Origin: Bacteroidales bacterium
Lineage (GTDB): Bacteria > Bacteroidota > Bacteroidia > Bacteroidales > VadinHA17
Length of the DNA: 64,000 bases
Direction: 5' to 3'
Assembly (NCBI GenBank): GCA_003141895.1
Contig: PLNT01000018.1
Span: forward strand, 85,647 to 149,646
Shown here: piece after piece, positions 17,712-38,300 of the stretch
Layout: every line of letters starts with the position of its first letter
Position numbering within the stretch: the first letter of the stretch is position 1
Made by a program: the position numbers and the translations under genes
The notes under the pieces: model-generated
Told to the model about the DNA's origin: nothing
Seen by the model: the letters and a program-made list of their open reading frames with translations, nothing else
The model's database searches: none

Positions 17712-17729
17712 TATTAAGAATTGAAAAGG

Positions 17730-21811: not shown

Positions 21812-22310
21812 ATAAATCAGTATATCAGTTTAATATTTTCTAAAACCAGGATTACAAAGCTAGTACTATTTTTAATACTACAAATCATATTGATATTTAA
21901 TTTGGTAAAATACAGATATTAATTAAGTAAATATATAGAATAGGTAAATATTATATATCTAATAGCTATATTTAATAAATATTATTAACATGACAAAAAT
22001 CATATTATAAATGCCTTTTTAACAATTATTAATACTAATGAGCAGCATTATACAATTGAAGTCCGCAAATTCATGATAATTTTGCGCAAGAATTTAAAAC
22101 ATTAATAGAATGAAATATATTTAAACATCTATCTCCTTAATATTATGTTGGTTACAATTAGTGAACAAAAATAAGTGTATGACACAACAATATTAAAAAA
22201 TGTATTTCTTTGTCATAATTATGTAATTCTCCGTTTTATAGAAATGTCTGCGATAATATTGAAAAGATCGACCGGCAAAATGAATTTGTCTTTTAATAAC
22301 GTAGGTGCTC

Positions 22311-23762
22311 ATGTTGCCTGATAAGAAAAATATAATCTTCATATTTCTGATTATTACAGTTTTTGGAACAGTTTTCCTATGGTGGATATTTAAGAATCAG
22401 CCACTTCCGTTAACCGAAAGGATCCCTGGCATGGATGGACGCCCCGCTATGAAAGCCCGATCTGATACTGTGAATATAGGAGAATTCTTTGATACACTTT
22501 CAGCGATGGATGCATTACTACCAGGTGACTGGCCACGTTTCAGAGGTGTTGATTTTGATAATATTAATAAAGACACTACACCCTTATCAGAAAAATGGGA
22601 TACAGCAGGACCAGCTATAATCTGGCAGGCAACCCTTGGCGAAGGATACGCCGGACCGGCAGTACATAACGGAAGAGTATATCTTCTTGATTATAATGAA
22701 AGGAAGAAAGCCGATGCTCTAAGGTGTTTTTCCCTTTCTTCAGGAAAAGAGCTATGGCGACGCTGGTATTATGTCGATCTAAAAAGAAATCATGGTTATT
22801 CAAGAACAATTCCGGCTGTAACAGATAAATACGTTGTTACAATGGGACCACGATCTCACGTAATGTGTGTCGACCCTGTCAGCGGCAAATTGTTGTGGTC
22901 TTTAGATCTTGAGAAAGAATTTGGTATCCCGGGGACAGAAAAAGGAAGAATCACACCCGATTTTTATACAGGACAATGCCCACTGATCGATAATGATGTG
23001 GCTGTTTTAGCACCCGGAGGAAAAGCATTGATGATAGGTGTCGATTGCGCGTCGGGTAAAATAATATGGCAGACTCCAAATACTGATTCCTTGAGGATGT
23101 CACACAATTCTATAATGCCTATGACAATTCAAGGGAAAAGAATGTATGTTTATAATGCAGTTGGCGGAGTAAGTGGTGTATCAGCTGAAAAATCCGATTT
23201 AGGTAAATTATTATGGCTGACTACTGACTGGAGTCCCGCAACAACTGCCGCTTCGCCGGTTTTTCTTGGAAATAACGAAATTGCAGTTTTTGGAAGCTAT
23301 GGTGCCGGGGGAGCAAGGATAATTATTAGTGAAGACGTGTCCGGGTTTAAAGCTACTGTCAAGGAACAGCATAAAGCAACAAACGGTCTCGCCAGCGATC
23401 AGCAAACTCCCGTGATAATTAAGGACTGCATATGGGCAGTCATGCCCGAAAATGCCGGCGCTCTTAAAAAGCAGCTGGTTTGCTATAAAAAATCGGACCT
23501 TTTAACTGAAGTCTGGTCAAGTGGCAAGGAAAACAGATTTGGTCGCGGACTTGGACCTTATATTGTGAGTGGTGATAAATTATATCTTCTGGATGATGAT
23601 GGAAATCTTTACTTTTATAAGATTCAGGATAATAAAGCGACATTGATATCGAGCCATAAAATATTGAAAGGAATTGAGGCTTGGGGTCCTATGGCCATCG
23701 CCGGTAAATATCTCATTATGAGGGATGCACGAAATTTGCTTTGTCTAAACATTGGTAAATGA
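22311..23762 (+). CDS. membrane-anchored PQQ-like (BamB-like) beta-propeller repeat protein
   Basis: N-terminal signal anchor (IIFIFLIITVFGTVFLWWIF). Propeller opens with the WPRFRG motif, followed by repeated G-K/E-x-L-W blades. A GTG start at 22305 is also possible. Confidence 0.7.
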   Translation: MLPDKKNIIFIFLIITVFGTVFLWWIFKNQPLPLTERIPGMDGRPAMKARSDTVNIGEFFDTLSAMDALLPGDWPRFRGVDFDNINKDTTPLSEKWDTAGPAIIWQATLGEGYAGPAVHNGRVYLLDYNERKKADALRCFSLSSGKELWRRWYYVDLKRNHGYSRTIPAVTDKYVVTMGPRSHVMCVDPVSGKLLWSLDLEKEFGIPGTEKGRITPDFYTGQCPLIDNDVAVLAPGGKALMIGVDCASGKIIWQTPNTDSLRMSHNSIMPMTIQGKRMYVYNAVGGVSGVSAEKSDLGKLLWLTTDWSPATTAASPVFLGNNEIAVFGSYGAGGARIIISEDVSGFKATVKEQHKATNGLASDQQTPVIIKDCIWAVMPENAGALKKQLVCYKKSDLLTEVWSSGKENRFGRGLGPYIVSGDKLYLLDDDGNLYFYKIQDNKATLISSHKILKGIEAWGPMAIAGKYLIMRDARNLLCLNIGK

Positions 23763-23769
23763 TCTGAGA

Positions 23770-24687
23770 ATGAATAAGAAAACAGTAACGGTTTTATCAG
23801 TTTTGGTCATTGTGGTTTTTATCGCATATATTGTATATGATGTATTTAAACCATCAGGAACAATTAATGACCCTAAAGCGAATGTTATTCCGGAAATAGC
23901 TGACGCCTGGAAGATTTCAAATGAATTGAAAGTAAATGAAGGAACACTCAAAGCAGTAACAGTATCACCTTTCGGGTTAATATATGTCGGAGGAGATTCT
24001 TTTTTATCGTGCTATGATAAAGAACTGAAACTTAAATGGAATGTAAAAACTCCAGCTTCTGTTACCTCACTTTCAAATTACGGTGATACTGTTTATGCAA
24101 CAACTCTCCAACAGATACTTGTAATGAACAGAGATGGCAAAATATTAAATGAATGGGGGCCTTTTGAAGATAGCAGTTTTATAACCTCGGTAAGCTCCAA
24201 TAAGAAATTTGTTGCATTTGCAGACGCGGGAAATAAAATGGTTTTCATTCTTGATAAAGGAGGTGAAGTAAAGAAAATGATTGGGCAGAATGACAAACAA
24301 TTTATCATTCCAAGTCCATATTTTGATCTGGCACTGGATAAAGAAAATAATCTTTTTACGGCGAATACCGGTCACCATCGGATTGAAACCAGGACGATTG
24401 ATGGTGCTGTAAAATCCTGGTTTGGGGAACCGGGGACTGCTCCGGAAAGGTTTGCAGGTTGCTGTGCTCCTCCTCATTTTGCACTTATTCCGCAGGGTTT
24501 TGTGACAGCTGAAAAAGGAATTAACAGGATTAAGATTCTCAACAAAAAGGGCGAATTTGTAGAGTTTGTAAATTCAAAGAATAGCTTTGTGAAATCAATT
24601 CCATTGGATGTGGCTTCAGCTGATGGAATTACAATTTATGCGGCAAACCCTGCGGATTCTAAATTGTATGTATTCAAAAGAAAATGA
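23770..24687 (+). CDS. membrane-anchored NHL-repeat-like six-bladed beta-propeller protein
   Basis: Signal anchor. NHL-like units (LFTANTGHHRIETRTIDG; INRIKILNKKGEF). Vicinal cysteines in FAGCCAPPHF. An alternative TTG at 23752 would overlap the upstream gene by 11 nt. Confidence 0.5.
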   Translation: MNKKTVTVLSVLVIVVFIAYIVYDVFKPSGTINDPKANVIPEIADAWKISNELKVNEGTLKAVTVSPFGLIYVGGDSFLSCYDKELKLKWNVKTPASVTSLSNYGDTVYATTLQQILVMNRDGKILNEWGPFEDSSFITSVSSNKKFVAFADAGNKMVFILDKGGEVKKMIGQNDKQFIIPSPYFDLALDKENNLFTANTGHHRIETRTIDGAVKSWFGEPGTAPERFAGCCAPPHFALIPQGFVTAEKGINRIKILNKKGEFVEFVNSKNSFVKSIPLDVASADGITIYAANPADSKLYVFKRK

Positions 24688-24771
24688 ATGAAGATTGCTT
24701 CGCTCCGCTCGCAATGACCGCAATTTTATTTAGGCAACAAATATTGATAATAGTTAAACGAGAAACCCAAA

Positions 24772-24939
24772 ATGACCAGAAGTGAATTAATAAAAAGACT
24801 TGGCAGATACATTCTGCTCATGCTGATTGCATTGATTGTCATTTCACTCGGGAAGAAAGTTACGGGTGCGAATGATTGCACAACCTGTGCCGGAAAAGGG
24901 ATTTGTAGCGGAAAGACTGACTGTAATAAGTATAAATAG
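24772..24939 (+). CDS. small Cys-rich single-TM membrane protein (55 aa), absent from the supplied ORF track
   Basis: Hand translation: MTRSELIKRLGRYILLMLIALIVISLGKKVTGANDCTTCAGKGICSGKTDCNKYK. Same strand as the flanking genes, and its stop lies 8 nt before the next start. TM helix followed by a Cx2Cx5Cx5C tail. Confidence 0.45.
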   Translation: MTRSELIKRLGRYILLMLIALIVISLGKKVTGANDCTTCAGKGICSGKTDCNKYK

Positions 24940-24947
24940 AAGAACAA

Positions 24948-25511
24948 GTGAAGGCGGATAAGAACAAATATCAATCCCGGAGGGACTTTGTCAAAACTGC
25001 TGGAAAGCTGATCATAGTTGCACCTTTGGTTATCATTCCTGTTTTTCTTGCAAAAAAAACTTCAGTAAAAGGATATGTCTGGCAGATTGATCCTCTTAAA
25101 TGCACTCAGTGTGGCCAATGCAAAACGAATTGTGTCCTCACTCCTTCCGCATCTAAGTGCGTTCATGCTTATCGGATGTGCGGTTATTGTGATCTGTGCG
25201 GCGGGTATCTTCGCCAGGGTGTAAAAACAATAAGCACAGGAGCAGAAAACCAGATGTGCCCGACCGGTGCGATAAAAAGAAAATTTGTCGAAGAACCTTA
25301 TTTTGAATATACAATCGACGAAAAGCTATGTGATGGCTGTGCAAAATGTGTTAAAGGATGCGGTGATTTTGGTAACGGTTCTTTGTATATGCAGATCAGA
25401 CATGACATCTGTGTGAACTGTAATGACTGCTCTATTGCACGTACATGCCCGTCAAATGCAATATCTCGCATTCCTGCAAGCATTGCGTACATTCCTAAAG
25501 ACAAAAGATGA
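24948..25511 (+). CDS. Tat-signal poly-[4Fe-4S] ferredoxin (NapG/MauM/NosG-like)
   Basis: Twin-arginine motif SRRDFVK followed by a hydrophobic region. Cys clusters CTQCGQCKTNC, CGYCDLCGG, CDGCAKCVKGC and CVNCNDCSIARTCP. GTG start. Confidence 0.75.
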   Translation: MKADKNKYQSRRDFVKTAGKLIIVAPLVIIPVFLAKKTSVKGYVWQIDPLKCTQCGQCKTNCVLTPSASKCVHAYRMCGYCDLCGGYLRQGVKTISTGAENQMCPTGAIKRKFVEEPYFEYTIDEKLCDGCAKCVKGCGDFGNGSLYMQIRHDICVNCNDCSIARTCPSNAISRIPASIAYIPKDKR

Positions 25512-26773
25512 AGAAAGCCCTTCCATATATATTATTACTTCTGCTTCTTTGCTGGCATATGGTTCTGTTTGCACAGGACAGATTTCCGAGACCTGAATTT
25601 GAGTCGGGACATGTTTACCCTACAAATCAGATGACAGCACCCAGAGCACAGGTATGGGAATATATCGATGTTTTGGTTCTGATTGCAGCATTAGCCGTTA
25701 CAACATGGCTGGCTCTGAAAAAACGTTCACGAAGGGGATTGATATGGATGTCGGTGTTCTCTCTCGCCTATTTTGGATTTTACAGGGAAGGTTGTATATG
25801 TTCTGTAGGATCGGTTCAAAATGTATCTCTTTCCTTATTCAATACCGGATATTCGATTCCTCTTACTGCTCTTCTTTTTTTCATTATCCCGCTCCTCTTT
25901 GCTCTGGCATACGGACGGGTGTTTTGCGCCGGAGTTTGTCCTCTTGGAGCAATACAGGAACTTACAGGTTTAAAGCCTGTTAAATTACCCAAAGCAGTTG
26001 AAGTAATACTTGCATTTGTTCCATTTATCTATCTTGGAATTGCCATCCTTTTTGCAGCTACAAACAGTCAGTTTATTATTTGCAGATATGATCCTTTTGT
26101 TGGCATTTTTAGACTGGATGCTCCATATACTATGATAATTTTTGGTGCATTGCTGCTTTTGTCCGGTATTTTTGTAAACAGGCCGTATTGCAGATTCCTG
26201 TGCCCTTATGGTGTACTGCTTAATCTTTTTTCAAGATTTGCAGGGAAGCATCTTACAATTACCCCTGCGGAATGCACCAATTGCAGACTCTGTGAAGAAG
26301 CTTGTCCTTATAATGCTATAATTCCTTCAAATACAGAACAAAAGTCTGAGGATCCTCAAAAATCAAGGAAACGATTTATAATCTATTTTCTTATGGTGCC
26401 GGTATTTGCAATTACAGGTGCTATTTTAATTTATAACCTCGCCCCTGCTGTATCGGGTGCAAATAGTACTGTGAGGCTGGCAAGAGAAATAAGGGCAGAA
26501 AAGAAAACAGGAATTGAAAGTGAATTAAAGAATGTTATTGCATTTAAGGAATCAGGAAAAACTGAGGAACAATTATATACAGAAGAGGAATCAATTATTG
26601 AACGTTTTAGAAAAGGTTCTCCATGGGTTGGGGCATTTCTTGGAATATCCTTCTCAATAGGATTGATATCTCTTACTATCAGAAGTAAACGAACAGAATA
26701 TAAACCGCATCAGGGTAAATGTTACAGTTGCGGCAGGTGTTTTAAATATTGTCCAATTAAAGTAAAGATTTAA
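25508..26773 (+). CDS. integral-membrane polyferredoxin (NapH/MauN/NosH/CcoG-like)
   Basis: Multiple TM helices. Two CX3CP motifs (CAGVCP, CRFLCP). Two CX2CX2CX3CP motifs (CTNCRLCEEACP, CYSCGRCFKYCP). ATGA overlap with the upstream gene. Confidence 0.8.
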   Translation: MKKALPYILLLLLLCWHMVLFAQDRFPRPEFESGHVYPTNQMTAPRAQVWEYIDVLVLIAALAVTTWLALKKRSRRGLIWMSVFSLAYFGFYREGCICSVGSVQNVSLSLFNTGYSIPLTALLFFIIPLLFALAYGRVFCAGVCPLGAIQELTGLKPVKLPKAVEVILAFVPFIYLGIAILFAATNSQFIICRYDPFVGIFRLDAPYTMIIFGALLLLSGIFVNRPYCRFLCPYGVLLNLFSRFAGKHLTITPAECTNCRLCEEACPYNAIIPSNTEQKSEDPQKSRKRFIIYFLMVPVFAITGAILIYNLAPAVSGANSTVRLAREIRAEKKTGIESELKNVIAFKESGKTEEQLYTEEESIIERFRKGSPWVGAFLGISFSIGLISLTIRSKRTEYKPHQGKCYSCGRCFKYCPIKVKI

Positions 26774-26774
26774 G

Positions 26775-28469
26775 ATGAAGATTAAATTTACTGAAAAGGA
26801 TATCAGTATTCTTAAGGTTGTCAGCCAGATATCAGGAGGATTTACACTTATTGTTGCACTGACGATGATCTTCAGTTTTGTACAGTTAAAAATAATGAAA
26901 CCTCTTGACAGTCCGATTCTGCTGTCAATTAAGGAACAATACGACAAGGATCCTTCAAATGGATCAAAAGCTGAGCAGATAAGGGCCATGGATCTGATGG
27001 CACGGAAAGCCTACTTCAGTTCAAGATGGCAGGTGGAAACAGGATCATATCTTCTTATAGCAGGGGTTATAATATTTATCTTAAGTCAGCGGCTTATATC
27101 CGAAAATGAAAAACTCTTTCCTGTTGTCTCAGATTCAAAACAAAACTCAACTTTCACCAGCGCAAAAAACAGAAAGTACCTGGTTACAGCAGTCCTTACA
27201 ATTATAGTTTTAGCGATTGCTTCATCAATACTTCTGCGTGCTTATCTTCCTGATATATCAAAAAATGCTAACGGATCAGCAAAGAATGCCGGAGCTGGAG
27301 ATGATAGAGCTATTAAACCGGATAAAACGAACTGGCCCTTCTTCCGGGGTCAGGACAGCAGGGGAATTGCCGGAGGATCAGGATATCCAACAGAATGGGA
27401 TGCCACATCGGGGAAAAATATAGGCTGGAAAATAGAACTACCGGGCAAAGGGAAAAGCTCTCCTGTCATTTGGGGTGATAAAATATTTATTACGGGTGCG
27501 AAGGATAAGATTTGTGAGATATATTGCATCGATAAAAATACAGGAAAATTCCTATGGAGCGGTTCTGCATCCGATATTCCCGGAGAACCGGCCGTGTTAC
27601 CAAAAACGGATGCCGAGGCTGGTCTTGCTGTTTCTACAGCTGCTACAAACGGGAAAGTCGTCTGCGCAGTGTTTTCTAATGGAAATCTCGTTTGTTTCGA
27701 TATGGATGGAAAACTGAAGTGGTCTGAAAATATTGGTGTCCCCGAGAATACATATGGATATTCATCTTCCCTTTTGATTTTTAAGGATAAGCTGATTCTT
27801 CAATTCGATAGCAACGCTAAAATATCCCTCAGAGGTTTTGATCTGGAAACAGGTAATCAGGCATGGGAAACCTTACGTAAAGGTCGGGCGGTATGGTCTT
27901 CTCCAGTAATTGGATACTTTAACGGAAAATCTGAAATAATAATAAATGGTAATCCTTATGTAAGTGGTTATGATGCTCTGACTGGAAGCGAACTCTGGGA
28001 GATGGAATGTATGAGCGGTGATGTTGCGCCATCAGTTGCTGTTAACAGTACTCTGGCGTATGCTGTGACAGATTATGCAAAACTTGCTGCAATTAAACCT
28101 GGAACCGTAGCTTCTATCCAGTGGGAGGATAATACCTATACACCCGATGTCTCAAGTCCTGTTGCTACAGATCAGTTCTTATTTGTATCTACCGGCAATG
28201 GGGACGTTGCCTGTTACAATGCGTTAAAAGGAGACACTCTATGGACGCATTATTTCCAGGATCCTTTTTATGCATCACCTGTTATAGCAGATGATATGGT
28301 TTATCTGCTAGACAGAACCGGTAAAATGCACGTTGTAAAAGCAGGAATCCCTTTCAGCCTGGTTTCAAATTCTCCGCTTGGTGAAGGCGCCGATTGTTCT
28401 CCGGCTTTTTCTGATAAGAAAATTTATATACGTGGAAAGAAAAATCTCTTTTGCATTTCGAAGAATTGA
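26775..28469 (+). CDS. PQQ-like beta-propeller repeat protein with about 3-TM N-terminal domain
   Basis: Three N-terminal hydrophobic spans, then the WPFFRG entry motif and BamB/PQQ_2-like blades. Starts 1 nt after the previous stop. Confidence 0.7.
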   Translation: MKIKFTEKDISILKVVSQISGGFTLIVALTMIFSFVQLKIMKPLDSPILLSIKEQYDKDPSNGSKAEQIRAMDLMARKAYFSSRWQVETGSYLLIAGVIIFILSQRLISENEKLFPVVSDSKQNSTFTSAKNRKYLVTAVLTIIVLAIASSILLRAYLPDISKNANGSAKNAGAGDDRAIKPDKTNWPFFRGQDSRGIAGGSGYPTEWDATSGKNIGWKIELPGKGKSSPVIWGDKIFITGAKDKICEIYCIDKNTGKFLWSGSASDIPGEPAVLPKTDAEAGLAVSTAATNGKVVCAVFSNGNLVCFDMDGKLKWSENIGVPENTYGYSSSLLIFKDKLILQFDSNAKISLRGFDLETGNQAWETLRKGRAVWSSPVIGYFNGKSEIIINGNPYVSGYDALTGSELWEMECMSGDVAPSVAVNSTLAYAVTDYAKLAAIKPGTVASIQWEDNTYTPDVSSPVATDQFLFVSTGNGDVACYNALKGDTLWTHYFQDPFYASPVIADDMVYLLDRTGKMHVVKAGIPFSLVSNSPLGEGADCSPAFSDKKIYIRGKKNLFCISKN

Positions 28470-30874
28470 AAATTAATAGATCAGATATATTGACCACTAA
28501 CTGCGATTGCGAAAAGACTTCGCAGGTTGATTTTACGAAGGTAATTGATGAAGTTCTGGCGAATACCGGGCGTGAACCTGAAAAAGTCATCCTGATACTC
28601 CAGGAAGTTCAGAAAAGGCTTAACTGGCTGCCTTCCGATGCACTTAAATACATTTGCAAAGTAACTGATATAACTCCGGGACAAATCTCCGGAGTTTCTA
28701 CATTCTATTCACAATTCAGACATCTACCGGTCGGTGAGCATACAATAAAAATATGTGCAGGAACAGCATGTCATGTAAAGGGTAGCCCTTTGATATCGGA
28801 TGCATTTAAAAGAGTTCTCAAAATTGATGACACAAAAAATGCATCAGCTGATAATCTGTTTTCAATTGAAGAAGTAGCCTGCCTTGGCTGCTGCACACTT
28901 GCTCCGGTTGTTCAGATTGACGGAAAGACATACGGTCATGTCAAAACAACGCAGGTTGACGAAATAATTTATGATTTTCTGCATCAGGGTAAAATGAGTA
29001 CAATGATTCAGGAACAAGACGGCAACAAAGAGGTAGATGCTGAGATTAGGGTTGGAATTGGTTCATGCTGTGTTGCAGGAGGAAGCAAAGAAATACTTTC
29101 TGAAATATTTGAAGTTAAAGAAAGATACAATCTCAATATAAGATTAAAACAAGTCGGCTGTGTCGGAGTATGTAATCAGACACCCCTGATGGAAATAGTC
29201 ACAAAAGATGGCATTCATTCAAGGTATACCAAGGTTTCTAAACCGCAGGTTGAAGAAATACTTCTTAAACACGTAAAACCCAGAAAACTAAACAAAAAAA
29301 TCAGGTATAAAATAAACGATCTTGTTGACACTTTTCTATCTGAAGATAAACTCACCGGACAGGCAAATTTGCCAGTGGAATTAAGGGAAAAATATCTAAA
29401 TAACTTCCTAAATCATCAGGTTCATATTGCCACAAAAAACAATGGAGAACTTTCTCCGGAATCTTACGATGAATATTGTTTGTCAGGTGGGTTTGAAGCT
29501 TTAAATAAATGTCTTAAGGAACCTGATCATGATTCAATTATTAAAATAATATTGGAAAGCGGTCTCCGGGGCCGCGGGGGTGCAGGTTTTCCCACCGGTA
29601 AAAAATGGGATATTTTCTCAAATTCGAAAGGTGAAACAAAATATGTGGTGTGTAACGGTGATGAAGGCGATCCGGGTGCTTTTATGGACAGGATGCTTCT
29701 TGAAACATTTCCTTATCGCGTAATAGAAGGAATGCTTATTGCAGGTTATGCAACAGGCGCAAGTGAAGGAATATTTTACATAAGGGCTGAATATCCTTTG
29801 GCTGTAACCAGGGTCAGGATTGCATTGAAAGCCTGCCGTGTAAATGGTATCCTGGGCAAGAATATTTTTGGAAGTACCTTTTCATTTGACATCAATATTT
29901 TTGAAGGTGCCGGAGCTTTTGTTTGCGGAGAGGAAACAGCTTTGATTTCTTCACTTGAAGGGAAAAGAGGAACTCCTCATCTGAGGCCTCCCTACCCTGC
30001 TGTTAAAGGATATAAAGGGAAGCCTACACTGGTTAATAATGTTGAGACACTTACACTTGTCCCTTGGATAATTACAAATGGTGCTGATCCATTCAGTTCA
30101 ATCGGTACAGATAAAAGCAAAGGGACCAAAGTATTTGCGCTTGCCGGAAAGATTTCAAAAGGAGGCTTGATAGAGGTTCCAATGGGTACGACGATCCGGC
30201 AGATAGTTGAAAATATCGGTGACGGAGTCGCAGATGGCAATACATTCAAAGCTGTTCAGATAGGAGGACCTTCGGGAGGATGTATCCCTGAAAGCCAGGC
30301 AGATATAGCAATCGATTACGAAGAACTGACCAGGATGGGTGCAATGATGGGCTCCGGTGGAATGGTAGTGTTGGATAACACCGACTGCATGGTTGACATG
30401 GCTAAATATTTCCTGACTTTTACACATAAACAGTCTTGCGGTAAATGTACATTTTGTCGGATAGGAACTAAACAAATGCTCAATATTATTACGGCTTTGT
30501 CGGAAGGGAGGGCAACTTTAGAGGATATTTCAGAGCTAGAACGACTGTGTAAATTTGTTAAAGATGGCAGTTTATGCGGACTCGGGAAGACTGCTCCGAA
30601 TCCGGTTCTTACAGGCCTGAAATATTTCAGGGAGGAATATGAAGAACATACAAGAGGATTTTGCAGGGCAAACAAATGCCAGAGTCTCATAAAATATAAT
30701 ATAAATGATGATTGTACCGGTTGCACAAAATGTTCGCAGGAGTGCCCGGTCAAGGCAATACCATTCAGACCTTATGAAAAACATGAGATAGACCAGACAC
30801 TTTGCACTAAATGTGATAACTGCAGAATTGTTTGTCCTGAAAAAGCAATTGAAATAATAAATATCAATGCTTAA
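28451..30874 (+). CDS. NuoE-NuoF fusion flavoprotein (HydBC/HndAC-type NAD(P)H-oxidising module) with C-terminal 2x[4Fe-4S] ferredoxin domain
   Basis: NuoE-type [2Fe-2S] (CAGTACH...CLGCC). A second thioredoxin-like FeS domain (GSCCVAGG...CVGVCNQTP). FMN/NADH motifs GRGGAGFPTGKKW and CNGDEGDPGAF. N3-type SCGKCTFCR...CGLG. Terminal CTGCTKCSQECP and CTKCDNCRIVCP. Start is uncertain: TTG 28451 or TTG 28466. Confidence 0.9.
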   Translation: MHFEELKINRSDILTTNCDCEKTSQVDFTKVIDEVLANTGREPEKVILILQEVQKRLNWLPSDALKYICKVTDITPGQISGVSTFYSQFRHLPVGEHTIKICAGTACHVKGSPLISDAFKRVLKIDDTKNASADNLFSIEEVACLGCCTLAPVVQIDGKTYGHVKTTQVDEIIYDFLHQGKMSTMIQEQDGNKEVDAEIRVGIGSCCVAGGSKEILSEIFEVKERYNLNIRLKQVGCVGVCNQTPLMEIVTKDGIHSRYTKVSKPQVEEILLKHVKPRKLNKKIRYKINDLVDTFLSEDKLTGQANLPVELREKYLNNFLNHQVHIATKNNGELSPESYDEYCLSGGFEALNKCLKEPDHDSIIKIILESGLRGRGGAGFPTGKKWDIFSNSKGETKYVVCNGDEGDPGAFMDRMLLETFPYRVIEGMLIAGYATGASEGIFYIRAEYPLAVTRVRIALKACRVNGILGKNIFGSTFSFDINIFEGAGAFVCGEETALISSLEGKRGTPHLRPPYPAVKGYKGKPTLVNNVETLTLVPWIITNGADPFSSIGTDKSKGTKVFALAGKISKGGLIEVPMGTTIRQIVENIGDGVADGNTFKAVQIGGPSGGCIPESQADIAIDYEELTRMGAMMGSGGMVVLDNTDCMVDMAKYFLTFTHKQSCGKCTFCRIGTKQMLNIITALSEGRATLEDISELERLCKFVKDGSLCGLGKTAPNPVLTGLKYFREEYEEHTRGFCRANKCQSLIKYNINDDCTGCTKCSQECPVKAIPFRPYEKHEIDQTLCTKCDNCRIVCPEKAIEIININA

Positions 30875-31934
30875 AATTAAAATAGACAATATAAGTTATA
30901 AAGCCGGTGATGGACAAACCATCATGGATGTTGCAAAGGGTGCAGGAATCCATATCCCTTCTCTTTGCTATTCTGATGGATTACCACATTATTCTTCATG
31001 CATGGTTTGTATGGTGAAGGATAAAAGAAGCGGAAACTTTATTCCTTCATGCTCTGCACTGGTACTCGATGGAATGGACATTGATTCTTCCTCGGAGGAT
31101 GTTCTAGCAATAAGAAAGAAGTCAATAGAGCTTCTTTTATCTGAGCACAGGGCTGAATGTGAGGCACAATGCAAAGTAGTTTGTCCTCAAGGATACAACA
31201 TTCCTCTTATGAACAGACTTCTCAGTGCAAATGATTTGGACGGTGCGATTAAACTTTCGCTCAGCCAGACCAGATCTTCAGGATTAAAATGCTTTGATTG
31301 TAAGGGATATTGTGAGAATGCCTGCCGGAGAAAAAAAATTGACCTCCCTATATCAATTCGCAATATGCAAATATTTATTTACGGCCAAATCAATCAGGAT
31401 TTTGCAGCGGTTGATTCCGATCTCCCATACGAGAAACCTTCAAAACGTTTTTCGTCACGAATTGGCCCTGTTGAGCCTGGCGAGTTGAAAGAATGGTTAA
31501 AAGAAAGCAAAAATGACTCTATCCGTTTCAGAGAGATTTTAAACATGGAATCTGCAGCTCTGGAGTCTGAAAGTTGTATGCATTGTGATTGCCGGTCTGC
31601 AGATGAGTGCAAACTGAGACTCATTGCTGATGAATTAGAAGTTAAGGATCCCAAAGGGAAACTTGTTAATTCTCCTATTCAAAAGAAGATAAATATTAAT
31701 ACCGGTCTCATATTTGAGAATGCTAAATGTATTAAGTGCGGTCTCTGTGTCAGACTATGTGAGGAATTAAAGGAAGAGCCTGCATTATGTTTTATAAACA
31801 GGGGATTTGTGAGTATTATCTCAGAACCTCTTACTGAAGAATTTGATAATGTACTAAAGAACAGAAGCAAAGAGGTTGTTGATATTTGCCCAACCGGGGC
31901 ATTAAGTTTGCGAACACCTAGCTCGGATTTTTAA
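30867..31934 (+). CDS. multi-cluster FeS protein, NuoG/HydA N-terminal-like, lacking any catalytic domain
   Basis: N-terminal plant-type [2Fe-2S] spacing (C-x10-C-x2-C...C), then a His-containing motif HRAECEAQCKVVCP. Further motifs CFDCKGYCENAC, CMHCDCRSADEC and CIKCGLCVRLC...CPTG. No H-cluster or molybdopterin motifs. 8-nt overlap with the upstream gene. Confidence 0.75.
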   Translation: MLKIKIDNISYKAGDGQTIMDVAKGAGIHIPSLCYSDGLPHYSSCMVCMVKDKRSGNFIPSCSALVLDGMDIDSSSEDVLAIRKKSIELLLSEHRAECEAQCKVVCPQGYNIPLMNRLLSANDLDGAIKLSLSQTRSSGLKCFDCKGYCENACRRKKIDLPISIRNMQIFIYGQINQDFAAVDSDLPYEKPSKRFSSRIGPVEPGELKEWLKESKNDSIRFREILNMESAALESESCMHCDCRSADECKLRLIADELEVKDPKGKLVNSPIQKKININTGLIFENAKCIKCGLCVRLCEELKEEPALCFINRGFVSIISEPLTEEFDNVLKNRSKEVVDICPTGALSLRTPSSDF

Positions 31935-31997
31935 TCCGCGACAGAATGCAACGATACAAAGACACAAAGATATAAGAACAGATTCTACTAATTTTAG

Positions 31998-32074
31998 ACC
32001 CCCTTCCCAACCTTCCCCCAAGGGGGAAGGGGTAAAAACATCATTTCCCCCTTGGGGGAAATAAGAAAGGGGGT
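31998..32074 (+). repeat. 77-nt GC-rich double-hairpin element, copy 1
   Basis: ACCCCCTTCCCAA-CCTTCCCCCAAGGGGGAAGG-spacer-TTTCCCCCTTGGGGGAAA-TAAGAAAGGGGGT. Two internal stems of 8-9 bp, plus an outer ACCCCC/GGGGGT pairing. Confidence 0.85.
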
Positions 32075-32103
32075 AACTAATAAAAAACGAGCAACTTTTT
32101 TTC

Positions 32104-33213
32104 ATGAGATTCATTCTTGCAGGCATATTGTATTTCTTTTTATTCATATCTGTTTCAGGTCAATCAACAGATTGGCCATTATTCAGAGGCAAATCAGATC
32201 TGTCGGGGAAGATCGAATCAGAACTTCCGGCTTCACCCAAACTTTTATGGAGCCTTGCAACACATACCACTACAAAATCCTCTCCTGTAATAAGTAATGG
32301 AACGATTTACTTTGGAAATGACAAAGGTTACCTGGTTGCAGTCAGCAGCACCGGAAATCTCAAATGGGAATACAAATCAGAAAGCTCAATTGATGCGGCC
32401 CCAATGATTTTTCATGATAAGATAATATTTGGAACAAGTGATGGAATTCTTACAGCTGTTGACAAATTATCAGGCAAATTAATCTGGAAGTACACTACTG
32501 AAAATCAGATAGCAGGTTCTGCTAATGTTTGGATATCAGGGAATAAAGCCGGAATTGTTATTGGTAGTTATGATTATTACCTGCACTGTGTTGACCCGGA
32601 AACGGGAAAACCATTATGGAAAGTTGAGACCGAGAACTATATTAATGGCACACCAGCTATACTGAATGGTAAGATAATATTTGGCGGATGTGATGGTATG
32701 CTAAGAATTGTAGATCCGCTTACCGGAAAGCAAAATGATACCGTCGACATTGGTGTTTATATTGCATCTTCGCCTGCCCTTTCACATGATCTGGCATTTT
32801 TTGGAGATTATGATGGCACCAAATACTGTGTGAATATTGTCACAAAAAAAATAGTGTGGAAGATTCCGGGAAATGAAGAATCGGGCTCAATATTGGCAAT
32901 TCCTGCTATCGGCAATAATTCAATTATAATTGGAAGCGAAGATAAATTTCTTTACTGTTACAATACCTCTGATGGTAAACTTGAATGGAAATTCCGAACA
33001 AACGGTAAGATTGACGGTTCAGCAGTATTAACATCATCAAAGGTTCTTTTCACAGGAATGGATGGATATATTTATATTCTTGGATTATCTGACGGAAAAA
33101 AACTTTGGAGTTTTAATGCAGGTACGCCTGTCAGCAGCTCTCCGGCAGTGGTTGATGGAAAATTTTATATTCTGACTGAGGATGGAAGATTAATGGCATT
33201 TGGAGAAAAGTAA
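32104..33213 (+). CDS. secreted PQQ-like beta-propeller repeat protein
   Basis: Signal peptide, WPLFRG entry motif, and regular blades of about 40 aa (GKLIWKY, GKPLWKV, KKIVWKI, GKLEWKF, GKKLWSF). Confidence 0.75.
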   Translation: MRFILAGILYFFLFISVSGQSTDWPLFRGKSDLSGKIESELPASPKLLWSLATHTTTKSSPVISNGTIYFGNDKGYLVAVSSTGNLKWEYKSESSIDAAPMIFHDKIIFGTSDGILTAVDKLSGKLIWKYTTENQIAGSANVWISGNKAGIVIGSYDYYLHCVDPETGKPLWKVETENYINGTPAILNGKIIFGGCDGMLRIVDPLTGKQNDTVDIGVYIASSPALSHDLAFFGDYDGTKYCVNIVTKKIVWKIPGNEESGSILAIPAIGNNSIIIGSEDKFLYCYNTSDGKLEWKFRTNGKIDGSAVLTSSKVLFTGMDGYIYILGLSDGKKLWSFNAGTPVSSSPAVVDGKFYILTEDGRLMAFGEK

Positions 33214-33347: not shown

Positions 33348-34637
33348 ATGAAAATAGTTTATCTAATTACAGGTTCAGGTGGTTCATTCTATTGCGGGAA
33401 TTGTTACCGCGATATGATCTATCTGAGAGCTATTCGAAAAGTTCCGGGTATAAATGCTTCTGCAGTACCATTGTATCTTCCTCCCGATGATACAAATACT
33501 GAAACCGGAATGGATAAGAATGTCTTCTTTGGAGCTATTTCAATGTACCTTAGAGAAAAAGTCCCTTTCCTTAAAAACATGCCTGTTTTCTTTGATAAAA
33601 TAGTTGATTCAGGCCCTATGCTCAAAATGGCTGCGCGACGGGCAGGGACAACACGCACTACAGGACTTGAAGAGATGACGCTGAATATGATAAAGGGAGA
33701 AAATGCTTTTCCTGAGAAAGAGCTCCAGCGCCTGATTGACTATCTCTGTAAAGATGGGAAACCAGATATTATTCATCTTTCAAATGCCCTTGTAATAGGA
33801 CTTGCACGCCAGATTAAGAAAAAACTAAATGTAAAAATTGTATGTTCTCTTCTTAATGAAGATGACTGGATAGATGAGATGATGGAACCGTATCAATCAG
33901 GTGCATGGAAACTTATAGCCAGAGAAGCAAATAACGTGGATATCTTTCTCACTCCCAGCAACTATTATAAAGAATTGTTTATCTGTAAAACAGGAATTTC
34001 AGATGAAAATTTTCATGTTATCCCTCTGGGATTTGATCCTGACTTAAAGAAAATTGAAAAGAAAGACAACTACCCTGCAATAGGATATTTCTGCAGGATA
34101 AGCTCCCAGAATGGAATCGACAAACTTGTTGACGCTTTTATTGAACTGAAATCTGTAAACAAATTGCCAGGACTTACGCTTCATATTTCAGGAGGTTATA
34201 CAGGTGATGACAAGCCATTTATCGCAGATCAGATAAAGAAAATTAAGGACAACGGATTGAAAAGCTTTGTAAGGATATATCCTGAGTTCCACGGAAACAG
34301 CAAACAAGAGTTTTTCAATAATATCGATGTAATGTGTGTCCCCGTCAGAAAACATGACGGCTATGGTTTGTACATACTCGAAGCCAATGCAGCTGGTGTT
34401 CCTGTTGTTCAGCCTGCAACAGGTGCATTTCCTGAAATAGTAGAAAGAACAGGAGGCGGGATAACATATACTCCTGATACAGTTGGAGCGTTATCAGCCA
34501 ATCTGCTAAAGATATTATCTGATCGTGAATTGTGTGTAGGACTTGGAAAGAAGGGTAAGGAAAATGTTTTAAAGGAACTCTCACTTATAAAAATGTCAGA
34601 AGGGTTGTCAAAAGTTTATAATTCATTAATGGGTTGA
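33348..34637 (+). CDS. glycosyltransferase family 4 (GT-B, group 1)
   Basis: 429 aa. C-terminal Ex7E-type motif EANAAGVPVVQPATGAFPEIVE. Confidence 0.8.
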   Translation: MKIVYLITGSGGSFYCGNCYRDMIYLRAIRKVPGINASAVPLYLPPDDTNTETGMDKNVFFGAISMYLREKVPFLKNMPVFFDKIVDSGPMLKMAARRAGTTRTTGLEEMTLNMIKGENAFPEKELQRLIDYLCKDGKPDIIHLSNALVIGLARQIKKKLNVKIVCSLLNEDDWIDEMMEPYQSGAWKLIAREANNVDIFLTPSNYYKELFICKTGISDENFHVIPLGFDPDLKKIEKKDNYPAIGYFCRISSQNGIDKLVDAFIELKSVNKLPGLTLHISGGYTGDDKPFIADQIKKIKDNGLKSFVRIYPEFHGNSKQEFFNNIDVMCVPVRKHDGYGLYILEANAAGVPVVQPATGAFPEIVERTGGGITYTPDTVGALSANLLKILSDRELCVGLGKKGKENVLKELSLIKMSEGLSKVYNSLMG

Positions 34638-34701: not shown

Positions 34702-35367
34702 ATGCTGTCGATAAAAAACATATCAAAGTCATTCACTCAGAGAGGTACTGTTCTTGATAACCTCTGTCTTGAAGTGGAAATGGGTGATACTATTGCCATA
34801 ATGGGGCCCTCCGGTTCGGGGAAAACGACCCTCATGAATATTATTGGGTTACTCGACAAACCTGACACGGGTGATATACTATTTAAAGGTGGATCTATTT
34901 CAAATTTCTCTGAATCTGAATCGGCAGCATACCGAAACATGAATATTGGATTTGTATTCCAGGATCATCTGCTCTTACCTTATATGAACATCTATCAGAA
35001 CATATTTCTACCTCTGCTTGCAGCGAAACATTCAAATATACAGTATTCAGATAAGAGGCTATATATTAATGAGTTAATGATACAATCGGGTATTTATGAT
35101 CTTAAAAACAAATTTCCGTCGCAGATTTCTGGCGGAGAGGCTCAAAGAGTTGCACTTGTCCGGGCCCTTGTTAATAAACCCTCTGTACTTCTTGCTGATG
35201 AACCGACAGGATCATTGGATGCAAAAAATGCAGAATCTATGGGTGAACTTCTTCTGGAAATGAACAGAGAATACAGTATAACCTTAATTCTGGCGACTCA
35301 CTCAAATGACATCGCGAATAAAATGTCGAAGAAATTGCATCTGGTTGATGGGAAATTAGTATTGTAA
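34702..35367 (+). CDS. ABC transporter ATP-binding protein (LolD/MacB-type)
   Basis: Walker A GPSGSGKTT, signature ISGGEAQR, Walker B LLADEPT. Confidence 0.9.
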   Translation: MLSIKNISKSFTQRGTVLDNLCLEVEMGDTIAIMGPSGSGKTTLMNIIGLLDKPDTGDILFKGGSISNFSESESAAYRNMNIGFVFQDHLLLPYMNIYQNIFLPLLAAKHSNIQYSDKRLYINELMIQSGIYDLKNKFPSQISGGEAQRVALVRALVNKPSVLLADEPTGSLDAKNAESMGELLLEMNREYSITLILATHSNDIANKMSKKLHLVDGKLVL

Positions 35368-35379
35368 AAGAATTAGTCA

Positions 35380-38300
35380 ATGCAGGGCATAATCAGAATT
35401 ATATTCAAGTCGATAAAGTTTTATAAGATACCGGTTCTATATCAGATCTTAATTATCGTATTGCTGTCAGCTGTAATCACCGGGTCATTGCTGACCGGTG
35501 AATCAGTAAGGCAAAGTCTTAAAAAAACATCTTCGGAGAGTCTTGGAAATACTGGTATTCTGATTAGTTCAGGAAACAGGTTCTTTTCCCCGGATCTTAT
35601 TCAGAAAATGAGAAACGGGTCCAATATATCGTGTACAGGTTTAGTCGAATTAACAGGATTTTGCCAGAATATGAACTCACAGAAGGGAGTTGTTAATGCT
35701 CATATTTTTGCTGCAAACAAAGACTTTTTTGCATTTCAGGGAAGTGATTCTCTAAGTATAAAACCCGGAGAAGTGGCGGTAAACATTAAGCTTGCCCAAT
35801 ATCTCGACTTGAAAAAAGGTGATGAGCTGATCATCCGTTATTCGGAAATAAATGACATACCCGCAGATGCTCCTTTTGCCCCTGACAGGAAGGTAAAGTC
35901 GGTAGTAATGAAAATAGGTGCTATTCTCGAACCTGAAAAGGTCGGAAATTTCTCACTTCTTATAAGCCAGATTACTCCATTGAACATATTCATGGATATG
36001 AATGATCTTGAAAATGATGGTCATAAGATAAACAGAATTCTGTTTAAAAAAGATTATAAGAATTCATTAATTGCGTTATACGATACCTTCAAAAACAATC
36101 TTACGCTGAAAGATATTGGTTTTAAAATCCGCACTGTGAAGAAAACGGGTAAGAATGAACTTGTATCTGACAGAGTATTCATCGATGGTACAATCGCTGA
36201 TGAGATATCAAAAGTTCTTCCGTCCTCAGCTCGTGTTATAACGTATATGGGGAACCATTTTAAATCTGGCGGACGATCAACACCTTATTCATTTATATCA
36301 GGATTGCCATCAGCTCTTTATCCTGAGATTGCTTCCGGTAACGGGATGATAATAAACAGATGGATGGCAAATGATCTAGGAGTAAAAGAAGGTGATGCTA
36401 TTCAGTTGTACTGGTATTCACCAGATTCTTTGAACAAATTGATTGAAAAAAACAGCCATTTTATAATTAAAAGTATTGTCGATATAAAAGGTATATGGGC
36501 AGACTCACTTCTTATGCCTGATTTTCCTGGTATTTCAGGTAAAGAATCCTGCTCAGACTGGGATGCCGGAGTTCCCATAAAAATTCACGAAATCCGGAAA
36601 AAGGATGAAGATTACTGGAACAGATACAGAGGAACGCCTAAAGCATTTATAAGTTATGAGAAAGCGAGAGAATTATGGGGAAATAATTTCGGTCCGGCTA
36701 CATCATTCCGTTTTCCAATTGCAGTAACGGTAAAAGATATTGAAAACAAAATTAACGGATCACTCGATCCATATAAGGTTGGGTTTACCATTACGGACAT
36801 ACGGGCTCAATCTTTAAAAGCATCAGAAAGCAGCGTCGATTTTGGCAGCTTATTTCTAAGTCTTGGATTTTTCCTCATTCTGGCGTCACTTATCCTGTTG
36901 TCATTTGCAGCTTCCTTATATTTTGATTCTAAGAAAAGGCACATTAATACCTTATATGCTCTTGGATTTAAAAATAACCGGATATTCATGCTATTGTTTT
37001 TTGAATCAGCGCTCATAAATTTTGCAGGTTGTATAATAGGGGCTTTTGGTGGCTTTCTGGCCAATCTTTTAATTACAGGGGCCCTGAATACAGTTTGGAA
37101 TGGTGCTGTGCAAACAAATACACTTCACCCATATTTCAATATTATTCCGGTTCTGACAGGATTTGTTTTAACATTCCTAACCATAATGGTGCTGATGCTG
37201 ATAAAAATAAAACGTTACCTGAAGGTTCTACACAGAAAAGGAATAGAAATTTATAATAATCACAGTGGTAAAAAAAATCTAATAATTCTATTTATTTCAT
37301 CATATATAACAATTTCGTTATTAATACTATCGGTCTTGTTAAATGAACAGAGAATGTTTTTTTCATTAGCATCAGGAATATCACTCTTACTGACGTGTGT
37401 TTTATTATGGAGACAATATTATCTGGGTGTCAGTAAGAGAGTCCAGAGAAAAACAGAAACAAGAAGACAGTTTTCCCGTTTATACTATTCATTCAACTCT
37501 TCCGGGGCTGTAACATCAATTTTATTTATTGCAGCAGGAATATTTACAGTTTTTATCACCGAGATGAACAGGATGAATTTCAATGAGAAAGCTGGTAATC
37601 GTTCAGGAGGTACAGGGGGTTATCTTCTTTGGTGTGAAAATACTATTCCTTTAAAGGAGGACCTGAATACTGATTTTGCCAGAAAATCATTTGGATTGGA
37701 CGATACAAAGCTTCCTGGTTTAAGATTTGTTCAGATGAAAAGATCATCGGGAAATGATGCCAGTTGTCTGAATCTGAATCATATTACTACACCTCCCCTT
37801 TTAGGAACAGATCCAACTGACTTCATTAATAATAAATCTTTTACTTTCTCAAAAGCTCTCAAAACAGAACATCTGAGAAATCCGTGGCAATATCTGAAAA
37901 TATCCCCCAGCTCAAATGTCATATATGGTATAGCCGATCAGACTGTTCTTGATTGGGGACTGAAAATAAAGATCGGTGATACTTTAATGTTGCGGGCAGA
38001 AAATGGAATGCCGCTCAAGATAATTATCGCTGCAGGATTACAATCTTCGGTATTCCAGGGCAATGTTTTGATTGGAATGGAATATTTCTCCAAATACTTT
38101 CCATCTGTATCAGGCAGTACCGTTATGCTGGCAGAAGGTAAGCCAGAGTCGGCTGAACTTATAAGAAACACTTTGAACGACAGGCTTGAAAATTACGGTT
38201 TGAGTATTGAAAAAACTAACAATCGGCTTGCTTCATTCTACACTGTTTCGAACACTTACCTCTCTATTTTTGCGGTATTCGGAGTTCTTGGTATGATCAT

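Follow-up and report, generated by a model that had tools for sequence, protein, structure and literature searches.

Gene organization of the cluster

Here, we describe a set of genes for a flavoenzyme, iron-sulfur proteins and beta-propellers that lies in a 64,000-nucleotide stretch of DNA from a Bacteroidales bacterium (the window; assembly GCA_003141895.1, contig PLNT01000018.1, positions 85,647 to 149,646 of the forward strand). An original prediction, made from the sequence, had proposed that these genes encode an orphan iron-sulfur wire leading from NADH to the periplasm. On the basis of the window translations, nine open reading frames (ORFs), designated A to I and all located on the plus strand, could be identified where that prediction had placed them. 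Its parts list was right with regard to genes, overlaps and motifs, except that it spoke of ten genes while naming nine. The gene junctions were also borne out, including the ATGA overlap at 25508-25511, the 1-nt gap at 26774 and the 8-nt overlap at 30867-30874. The same-strand block extends further, to position 38631, and comprises 12 genes in total; J, K and L, which encode a GT4 glycosyltransferase, a LolD-like ABC ATPase and an FtsX permease, are also syntenic in many relatives. All features are listed in Table 1. Gene calls in four public assemblies containing the same DNA agree with these reading frames, including GCA_003154725.1 (contig PMEL01000067.1), a metagenome-assembled genome (MAG); related loci are labelled Bacteroidales. 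Two Stordalen-type metagenome assemblies are among these four as well.

Searches with Pfam and NCBIfam recovered the domains that had been expected (PQQ_2, Fer4 variants, Complex1_51K, NADH_4Fe-4S, 2Fe-2S_thioredx and Fer2_4). No CXXCH heme motif was found in the translations of the 12 block proteins, and no H-cluster, molybdopterin or copper domain could be detected in the block with Pfam and NCBIfam, as had been noted before. Hydropathy analysis agreed with the predicted anchors, that is, a single N-terminal one on each of A, B and C and a twin-arginine translocation (Tat) signal or anchor on D. It also indicated approximately seven transmembrane (TM) segments in E, three in F and a signal peptide in I. 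Each of A, B, C, D and F carries an N-terminal hydrophobic anchor.

Table 1 Features of the redox gene cluster and its downstream flank in the window
Feature	Position	Strand	Remarks
A: membrane-anchored 8-bladed PQQ_2-type beta-propeller	22305..23762	+	485 aa; gene callers start at 22311
B: membrane-anchored NHL-type 6-bladed propeller	23752..24687	+	311 aa; invariant Cys237-Cys238
C: anchored 4-Cys peptide	24772..24939	+	55 aa; C36, C39, C45, C51
D: Tat-signal 16-Cys polyferredoxin	24948..25511	+	predicted 4 x [4Fe-4S]
E: NapH/NosR-superfamily integral membrane polyferredoxin	25508..26773	+	421 aa; signal peptide and ~7 TM
F: 3-TM BamB-like 8-bladed PQQ_2 propeller	26775..28469	+	564 aa; partner of E
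G: BfuC-BfuB fusion	28451..30874	+	807 aa
H: truncated BfuA/NfnA-type iron-sulfur subunit	30867..31934	+	355 aa; without flavin or NADPH domain
Dispersed palindromic (REP-like) element in the H-I spacer	31997..32073	.	CCCCCWWGGGGG 5 times in the window (0.01 expected); near-identical copy at ~47575-47651
I: secreted 8-bladed PQQ_2 / Beta-prop_ACSF4 propeller	32104..33213	+	369 aa; signal peptide
J: GT4 glycosyltransferase	33348..34637	+	Glycos_transf_1, E-value 2.5e-19
K: LolD/MacB-type ABC ATPase	34702..35367	+	TIGR02211, 212.6 bits, under the cut-off of 307.75
L: duplicated FtsX-type permease, partner of K	35380..38631	+	1083 aa; FtsX match; ten hydrophobic segments = 10 TM
Secreted F-type propeller paralogue, convergent with L	38718..40067	-	449 aa; PF13360, E-value 3.4e-16

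The cytoplasmic flavoenzyme G-H

Two papers on the bifurcating (Bfu) enzyme family (PMC9304861, PMC11829005) describe the BfuBC core, with its flavin mononucleotide (FMN)-[4Fe-4S]-[2Fe-2S] 'flavobicluster', as the defining bifurcating unit, and a 'third substrate' that is fed through BfuA. The founding survey (PMC9304861) left 17 out of 57 clades unassigned and predicted membrane-bound, quinone-reducing Bfu complexes. Protein G, previously considered as a NuoE-NuoF fusion, belongs to this family. Its Pfam domains are 2Fe-2S_thioredx, Complex1_51K, NADH_4Fe-4S and Fer4_21, with a second 2Fe-2S_thioredx stretch, and the motifs GRGGAGFPTGKKW and CNGDEGDPGAF could be confirmed in the translation. 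The resulting layout is a NuoE-like [2Fe-2S] domain, a second thioredoxin-like [2Fe-2S] domain, a NuoF-like FMN/NADH domain with a [4Fe-4S] cluster, and two C-terminal [4Fe-4S] clusters.

Comparison with PDB sequences showed that residues 199-804 of G cover the entire length of NfnB (9n5u_B, E-value 1.5e-201), with StnB and HydB from bifurcating hydrogenases as further matches, whereas NuoF of complex I matches G far less well (~1e-100). Residues 1-200 had their best matches in 9bov_C, HydC and NfnC (E-values of 9e-36 to 4e-33). G has the FMN/NADH domain, the N-terminal thioredoxin-like [2Fe-2S] domain and the C-terminal pair of [4Fe-4S] clusters of a BfuB, and its first 200 residues correspond to BfuC, the NuoE-like [2Fe-2S] subunit, here fused to BfuB. 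On this domain evidence, G is assigned as a full BfuBC core that includes the C-terminal di-cluster domain, as in bifurcating HydB and NfnB. The NuoE and NuoF domains of the earlier description are thus present, but they do not form a plain NADH entry point; they belong to a BfuC-BfuB fusion whose nearest relatives are NfnABC and Stn. Since G is such a fusion of the bifurcating family, ferredoxin is probably its second cytoplasmic substrate, and the G-H core may carry out electron bifurcation or confurcation.

Protein H contains Fer2_4, Fer4_20 (a di-cluster domain) and, at its C-terminus, Fer4_Nqo3, and this combination of Fer2_4 and cluster domains is that of BfuA, a NuoG-N-terminal-like iron-sulfur subunit. 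The earlier reading of H as the N-terminal part of NuoG was correct as to the iron-sulfur portion, but its identity is rather that of a truncated NfnA/BfuA. In the PDB search, H matched only residues 4-176 of NfnA (likewise the N-terminal ~175 residues of 9bov_A, StnC) as well as the N-terminus of HydA. H is ~520 aa long in most relatives, and the protein of Marinifilum flexuosum aligns to residues 5-287 and 443-671 of StnC/NfnA. This long form keeps the subdomain that binds flavin adenine dinucleotide (FAD) and lacks both the NADPH subdomain (NfnA 288-442) and the C-terminal molybdopterin-like half; by comparison, the window lineage has evidently deleted the FAD subdomain as well. The GltD-like FAD and NADPH module of NfnA was not found in H, and identity with plain NfnABC was rejected because the NADPH subdomain is missing. 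Complex I was not indicated either: the NuoG model TIGR01973 gave 78 bits against a cut-off of 470, and no other nuo genes could be identified in the cluster or in the inspected loci. As G carries the BfuBC core and H lacks the NADPH part, to which NfnABC owes its third substrate, the pair can be regarded, from these alignments, as an Nfn-derived Bfu core without its soluble third substrate.

Membrane and periplasmic iron-sulfur proteins

E was matched by two Fer4_5 domains and one Fer4 domain in Pfam and contains the motif set reported for it, namely two CX3CP motifs (C140 and C228) and two CX2CX2CX3CP motifs (C256 and C405). E and D had been called NapH-type and NapG-like, respectively. The motif set and the superfamily relationship stand, but both proteins are far under the cut-offs of NapH and NapG and are not members of these families. 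E scored below every NapH/NosR family cut-off (62.6 bits against 213.05 for the NapH model TIGR02163). Its match to NF046105 (47.5 bits, cut-off 1000) spans the membrane/iron-sulfur part only, and E gave no FMN_bind match, so that the N-terminal periplasmic FMN-binding domain of NosR/NirI is missing. D reached 17.6 bits with the MauM/NapG model TIGR00397, whose cut-off is 178.85. The E family comprises 404 clusters (50% identity) at an E-value below 1e-30, and the names used for these proteins in public databases are generic ('polyferredoxin', 'NosR/NirI family regulator' and 'BamB family protein').

Among 31 homologues with 34-49% identity, the invariant cysteines of E are C140/C144-P, C228/C232-P, C256-266 and C405-415, together with C96, C98 and C192; C96 and C98 are located in the sequence GCICxVGSIQN. 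The same cysteines are invariant in ten homologues in which E is fused to F (34-42% identity to one another), and these sets are therefore common to unfused Bacteroidota-type and fused forms. On the basis of hydropathy, of the positive-inside rule and of the helices in an AlphaFold2 (AF2) model, C96, C98 and C192 would be placed at the periplasmic ends of TM2 and TM4, and C140/C144-P, C228/C232-P and both [4Fe-4S] motifs on the cytoplasmic face. In addition, E has a two-helix insertion between its [4Fe-4S] motifs. No solved structure of the E family could be found by sequence, and a Foldseek search with the E-F fusion model gave propeller matches only. It should be noted that in one protein of 989 aa (P0425) a NapH-like module of the E family is fused to TPR repeats and not to a propeller; the TPR part is another protein-interaction scaffold on the same membrane iron-sulfur unit.

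The Tat motif SRRDFVK could be read in the translation of D, which matches Fer4_7, Fer4_6 and Fer4 in Pfam. R11, R12, F14 and 16 cysteines were conserved in at least 93% of 75 orthologues, and this number of cysteines is enough for four [4Fe-4S] clusters. D may, and probably does, stay on the membrane by means of an uncleaved signal, since it has no obvious signal-peptidase site.

The short ORF C is called as a gene in public assemblies, and its four cysteines are conserved in 21 close loci. In ten distant loci (L066:9208-, L046, L057, L067, L070, L050, L084, L047, L033 and L053), the spacer between B and D contains an ORF of 65-70 aa with a Tat-like RR[DERS]F[LI] motif (for example, MERRDFLR and MNRRSFLK) and four cysteines within 16 residues (C-x5-C-x2-C-x5-C). 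In the window clade, the arginine pair was lost and one cysteine was shifted (C-x2-C-x5-C-x5-C). A Tat-targeted mini-protein with four cysteines is unusual. Quinohemoprotein amine dehydrogenase combines a propeller with a small Cys-rich subunit; however, peptidyl-quinone systems of this type or of the methylamine dehydrogenase/MauMN type were rejected, as C has no Trp, there is no heme motif, and neither a radical SAM nor a MauG-type gene is present.

Beta-propellers

Three of the propellers (A, F and I) match PQQ_2 in Pfam, a family named after pyrroloquinoline quinone (PQQ). A (PF13360, E-value 1.6e-21) is the most conserved of the propellers, with a median identity of 48% over 68 orthologues. 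Its AF2 model (predicted local distance difference test (pLDDT) 86.2, predicted TM score (pTM) 0.84) consists of a TM helix (residues 7-30) followed by an eight-bladed propeller, whose Foldseek neighbours are BamB and tetrathionate hydrolase (TM score ~0.55, 14% identity). The invariant polar residues of A (E113, N162-H163, R167, Q224-C225, S266-H267-S269 and Q366-Q367) directly precede the innermost strand (strand A) of successive blades and should line the rim of the central channel. In this fold, the channel rim is where PQQ enzymes hold their cofactor. Tetrathionate hydrolase, a PQQ_2-type fold that acts as an enzyme outside the cytoplasm without PQQ, was the best PDB sequence match of the A profile (E-value 2.8e-6), at the level of the blade motif only (13-14% identity). 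A tetrathionate-hydrolase-like enzyme was therefore not adopted for A and stays a lead.

B alone had no Pfam match, and its orthologue profile was clearly NHL: it matches the NHL domains of TRIM71, TRIM2 and Brat with E-values from 5e-22 (TRIM71) to 1e-13, and 14 out of 18 B orthologues match PF01436. The invariant residues of B include F234, E254, K255, R259 and K261 as well as G236, C237, C238 and P240, which form a GCCxP motif with vicinal cysteines. F (PF13360, E-value 4e-26), modelled in the E-F fusion (pLDDT 84.7), resembles BamB with a TMt of ~0.8. I (PF13570, E-value 8.6e-59; PF13360, E-value 8.2e-34) has few conserved polar residues, like F. Many conserved cysteines were found in A, B, F and I.

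None of the PQQ_2 propellers could be assigned to BamB or to the PQQ-dependent dehydrogenases. For these proteins, the BamB model TIGR03300 gave 29.7, 58.5 and 134.9 bits (cut-off 285.2) and the dehydrogenase model TIGR03075 gave 20, 59.5 and 75.6 bits (cut-off 480). PF01011 was marginal for F (26.8 against a gathering threshold of 26.7) and matched short parts only of I. By hydropathy, the propellers carry TM anchors and no lipoboxes. No PQQ-binding or catalytic residues were identified in them. It had been suggested that the propellers, or a cofactor they carry, may be the terminal catalytic component; only A shows strongly conserved channel-face residues, and F models as a plain BamB-like scaffold in its fused homologue. 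Thus, the description of purely BamB-like scaffolds without a conserved pocket applies to F and I and not to A, perhaps not to B either; A and perhaps B look like functional sites, whereas F and I look like scaffolds.

The product of the convergent gene at 38718-40067, a fifth propeller gene, shares 31% identity with the propeller of F over 434 residues, and its membership in the redox system is uncertain. Between one and four additional propeller genes of the A or F type flank the cluster in relatives, so the periplasmic partners may form a set that can be expanded.

Gene fusion, synteny and distribution

A search of 1.84 billion representative proteins revealed approximately ten E-family proteins of ~1000 aa. 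In the five that were examined, E is followed by a three-TM segment and then by the PQQ_2 propeller of F. A profile search identified at least 21 clusters of E-F fusions, one of them named Planctomycetota by a source. The topology of the fusion is sensible, as the cytoplasmic C-terminus of E together with three TM segments places the propeller outside.

Genes of the E family were detected in at least 598 species genomes, and more than 7,800 homologues of E were found in metagenomes. The 80 best loci are nearly all from Bacteroidota, including isolates of Marinifilum, Labilibaculum, Draconibacterium and Ancylomarina. Gene presence was counted in 43 loci whose flanks extend for 10 kb in either direction. 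In 40 of them, all eight genes that were scored (A, B, D, E, F, G, H and I) were on one strand and in window order. D and E were each present in all 43 loci, A, B, F and I each in 42, and G and H each in 41; GT4 (J) was found in 31 and the ABC ATPase (K) in 33. L follows K wherever the flank reaches, and also in the distant locus L088. These counts hold at E identities down to 45%.

The loci with E-F fusions were also inspected. In L086 and L087, the E-F fusion is accompanied by genes for a PQQ_2 protein, a D-like ferredoxin, a G-like protein and a long H-like protein, and by a gene of matching size that is NHL-like or has no annotation. D, E-F, G and H were found in L085 and L088, and in L088 the ABC ATPase and FtsX genes come next. 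The A-like and B-like genes of these loci were identified by Pfam match and size rather than by alignment with their window counterparts. Taken together, comparison of these loci shows a gene set and order conserved in Bacteroidota and a clustering of the same families in Planctomycetota-type contigs. The expectation that the genes form a conserved unit was thus confirmed by the 40 of 43 loci in the same order and by the E-F fusion, and homologues are not scattered.

No catalytic genes for hydrogenase, formate dehydrogenase, Nap, Nos or Mau were present in the inspected gaps or in the tables of called genes. The idea that a gene for hydrogenase or formate dehydrogenase had been lost locally was therefore rejected, as the gap inserts (seven stretches in six loci) encode nothing catalytic for H2 or formate. 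The inserts are restriction-modification-type, IS200-like transposase, SGNH-type hydrolase, ThuA-like, four-helix-bundle and thioredoxin-like genes. The last of these, found among the inspected loci only in Draconibacterium orientale (L067:15472-15927), encodes a protein of 151 aa with a CPRC motif; its position is between G and H, and it might point to thiol-disulfide chemistry. In some assemblies, F, G, H or A is split or truncated (L003:11268-12967, where F appears as 335 + 231 aa; L008; and L022, with several breaks), probably due to assembly frameshifts rather than pseudogenes.

Proposed mechanism and alternative explanations

We propose that the genes at 22305-33213, probably joined by those as far as 38631, specify a single membrane-bound redox complex of the Bfu type that would deliver electrons to a periplasmic reaction, a reading to which we give a probability of about 0.5. 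H would dock on the cytoplasmic [4Fe-4S] domains of E and thereby replace the lost NADPH site. NADH, probably together with reduced ferredoxin, would be oxidized at G (confurcation, as in HydABC running towards H2), and the electrons would pass via H and E across the membrane. At the periplasmic face, D, held together with peptide C on a platform of E and F, would accept the electrons and hand them to the anchored propellers. The likeliest sites of reaction would be A, with its channel-face residues, and B, with its invariant Cys-Cys pair, and F and I would serve as scaffolds or binding modules. The physiological role would be that of an alternative electron sink by which fermenting anaerobes reduce a periplasmic substrate. 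Our guess for this substrate is an inorganic sulfur species or a disulfide, because this would fit the tetrathionate hydrolase precedent and the conserved cysteines. Outward flow is favoured over inward flow because the hosts are fermenters: those named in record titles are polysaccharide fermenters, which need electron sinks and not sources, and Bfu hydrogenases normally serve fermenters as confurcating electron sinks. With regard to the NADH-to-periplasm wire of the original prediction, the parts and their conservation are retained, but the NADH-only entry has to be corrected to a Bfu core, and catalysis by propellers is hinted at only for A. We would go further only tentatively, to a new Bfu class with its third-substrate site outside the cytoplasm, in which confurcation, possibly aided by the membrane potential, would feed low-potential electrons to the NapH-like protein and then to the ferredoxin, and a propeller without a known redox cofactor (A and/or B) would carry out a reduction to which no enzyme family has yet been assigned.

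Several points weigh against the proposed complex. F, the most tightly coupled of the propellers, looks like a plain scaffold of the BamB type and conserves few polar residues, and both the pocket of A and the cysteine geometry of E are deduced from secondary structure and topology only. The invariant residues of E include no intramembrane His or other obvious redox carrier; a purely iron-sulfur path would have to bridge ~30 Å of membrane, and a quinone may take part, as is assumed for NapH. In addition, a Rikenellaceae MAG (L023, 10001-19418) keeps A-F, I, GT4, ABC and FtsX genes (that is, A-F and I-L) in order, with no G or H between F and I or elsewhere beside them. Here, the flavoprotein module is either encoded elsewhere, or the membrane and periplasmic part runs from another donor. 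The model also offers no role for GT4 and ABC/FtsX, although their genes are conserved, and no result constrains the direction of electron flow.

Two alternatives keep the flavoenzyme and the membrane protein together and differ in the path or the direction of the electrons. If E were quinol/quinone-reactive, as is assumed for NapGH and NosGH, electrons from NADH and ferredoxin would reach menaquinone by way of G-H and the cytoplasmic clusters of E, as in the predicted Nuo-Bfu, and the periplasmic face of E with D would re-oxidize the quinol for the periplasmic partners, so that quinone would cross the membrane. Such coupling would agree with the distant relationship of E to NapH/NosR, with the lack of an intramembrane carrier among its invariant residues and with the membrane-bound quinone-reducing Bfu complexes predicted by Schut et al. 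in their survey (PMC9304861). On the other hand, E is far under the NapH cut-off, no quinone-binding motif could be identified in it, and H has lost its NADPH site, which points to a protein partner dedicated to it. Moreover, the three invariant cysteines placed in the periplasm and the two-helix insertion are presumably absent from Escherichia coli NapH. On balance, we consider quinone coupling unlikely. Electrons might also flow inward, from a low-potential periplasmic donor oxidized at the propellers or D, through E and H to the BfuBC core, which would then reduce NAD+ and ferredoxin. This would conserve energy, and reduced ferredoxin is supplied by NfnABC and by bifurcating hydrogenases and formate dehydrogenases when they run this way; according to PMC9304861 and PMC11829005, Bfu enzymes work in both directions, with a third substrate that is normally a donor near -400 mV. 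However, the genes include no catalyst known to act on H2, formate, CO or a similar donor, and propellers without a recognized redox cofactor are poor candidates for oxidizing a donor at -400 mV. Since the hosts are also taken to need sinks rather than sources, inward flow appears quite improbable.

The wire might also serve envelope biogenesis or repair by supplying reductant for the maturation or upkeep of periplasmic or outer-membrane components, for instance to reduce disulfides or to install a propeller cofactor, together with GT4 and the LolD/FtsX-type ABC system. This would account for the synteny of the GT4, ABC ATPase and FtsX genes (31-33 of 43 loci, with ABC and FtsX genes also after the cluster in L088), and it would suit the BamB-like propellers, the many conserved cysteines in A, B, F and I, the CxC of E placed in the periplasm and the CPRC gene of Draconibacterium. 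We nevertheless regard it as very doubtful, as a high-capacity Bfu flavoenzyme and a four-cluster ferredoxin would be unusual for a housekeeping thiol pathway, and L085-L087 keep the redox core and lack the GT4, ABC and FtsX genes. Finally, G and H are closest to NfnABC/Stn and could in principle form an ordinary soluble enzyme of the NfnABC or HydABC type, encoded next to unrelated periplasmic genes by chance. This is extremely improbable, since 40 of 43 loci preserve order and strand, loci from a second phylum group the same families together, the genes overlap or abut, and no hydrogenase or formate dehydrogenase gene is adjacent. Furthermore, H is without the NADPH subdomain in the relatives that were examined and has lost the FAD subdomain as well in the window, which rules out an Nfn.

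Comparison with known systems and implications

The closest relatives of the cytoplasmic part are NfnABC and StnABC (PDB 9n5u, 9bov and 8oh5; PMC9304861, PMC11829005). G covers NfnC and the whole of NfnB, including the FMN/NADH site, the clusters of the proposed bifurcating flavobicluster and the di-cluster domain, and H matches the iron-sulfur parts of NfnA. In contrast to these enzymes, BfuC and BfuB are fused here, H has neither the NADPH subdomain nor the molybdopterin-like half, and the genes lie among those for membrane and periplasmic proteins. HydABC and the Nuo-Bfu and Mbh-Bfu complexes predicted in the Bfu survey (PMC9304861) share the BfuBC core and a third branch through a BfuA-type subunit, and the latter offer a precedent for membrane attachment. 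Here, however, a NapH/NosR-type protein, a Tat-exported ferredoxin and propellers take the place of a hydrogenase, formate dehydrogenase or complex-I-type module. None of the words propeller, PQQ, periplasm and polyferredoxin was found in the searched text of that survey (PMC9304861).

With regard to the membrane part, the motif set of E and the Tat-exported multi-cluster ferredoxin D resemble NapGH, NosGH, MauMN, NosR/NirI and RdhC/PceC. The NapGH-, NosGH- and MauMN-type pairs are thought to serve periplasmic enzymes. E differs from these systems in having ~7 TM segments, a two-helix insertion and three extra invariant cysteines placed in the periplasm, and in lacking an FMN-binding domain. 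Also, no Nap, Nos, Mau or Rdh catalytic gene accompanies it (neither the examined window ORFs nor the loci inspected contained napA, mauAB or nosZ), whereas a cytoplasmic flavoenzyme is encoded alongside. The propellers share the eight-bladed PQQ_2 fold of BamB, on which the F-type superposes with a TMt of ~0.8 and A with ~0.7, but they are anchored in the inner membrane by TM segments or fused to a polyferredoxin; they are not lipoproteins and have no adjacent bam genes. A also resembles the tetrathionate hydrolase of Acidithiobacillus ferrooxidans (6l8a) and the PQQ-dependent dehydrogenases in its eight-bladed PQQ_2-type propeller, although only at the blade-motif level.

No description of the cluster could be found in the literature searched (full text), and we rate the system as a Bfu-type enzyme with an unprecedented set of membrane and periplasmic partners. 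If the catalyst turns out to be a propeller without cofactor, the system could amount to more than a Bfu variant. Bfu enzymes are central to the NADH/ferredoxin balance in anaerobes, and, to our knowledge, all characterized members use soluble cytoplasmic third substrates (H2, formate, NADPH and aldehydes). With a Bfu core connected to the periplasm by a NapH/NosR-type protein, flavin-based bifurcation would reach into extracytoplasmic chemistry. Such a connection would also provide a defined cytoplasmic donor for a NapH-like protein; the electron source of such proteins has long been unclear. The hosts include abundant Bacteroidales of thawing permafrost peat, sediments and digesters. If the proposal is true, the complex would represent a widespread electron sink of anaerobic polysaccharide degraders in these habitats, and an electron sink or source of this kind would alter metabolic models of their carbon turnover. 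Marinifilum, Labilibaculum, Draconibacterium and Ancylomarina provide cultured carriers.

Dispersed element and flanking genes

The 77-nt repeat that had been noted between H and I is present, but it is one copy of a dispersed palindromic element. A near-identical copy is located at ~47575-47651 and a partial one at 33292-33303, and the copies lie in intergenic spacers. The sequence CCCCCWWGGGGG occurs five times in the window against an expectation of 0.01. The element consists of two hairpins, CCTTCCCCCAAGGGGGAAGG and TTTCCCCCTTGGGGGAAA; by these features it is REP- or MITE-like (repetitive extragenic palindromic sequence or miniature inverted-repeat transposable element), and the copy that follows H may in addition function as a hairpin in the H-I spacer. 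A scan for promoters (sigma-70 consensus) and terminators gave counts near those of shuffled sequence.

Upstream of the cluster, the window encodes a pyruvate formate-lyase-like glycyl radical enzyme with its activase (13324-16519, minus strand), a second MacB-type FtsX permease (8075-10447, plus strand) and a pair of DUF4249 and TonB-dependent receptor genes (16713-20069, plus strand). These genes fit an anaerobic fermentative member of the Bacteroidota, and no link between them and the redox cluster was seen in relatives. Downstream, the GT4 protein, whose gene lies beside the redox genes in 31 of 43 loci, starts with a Cys pair (GSFYCGNCYRD) that is atypical of its family.

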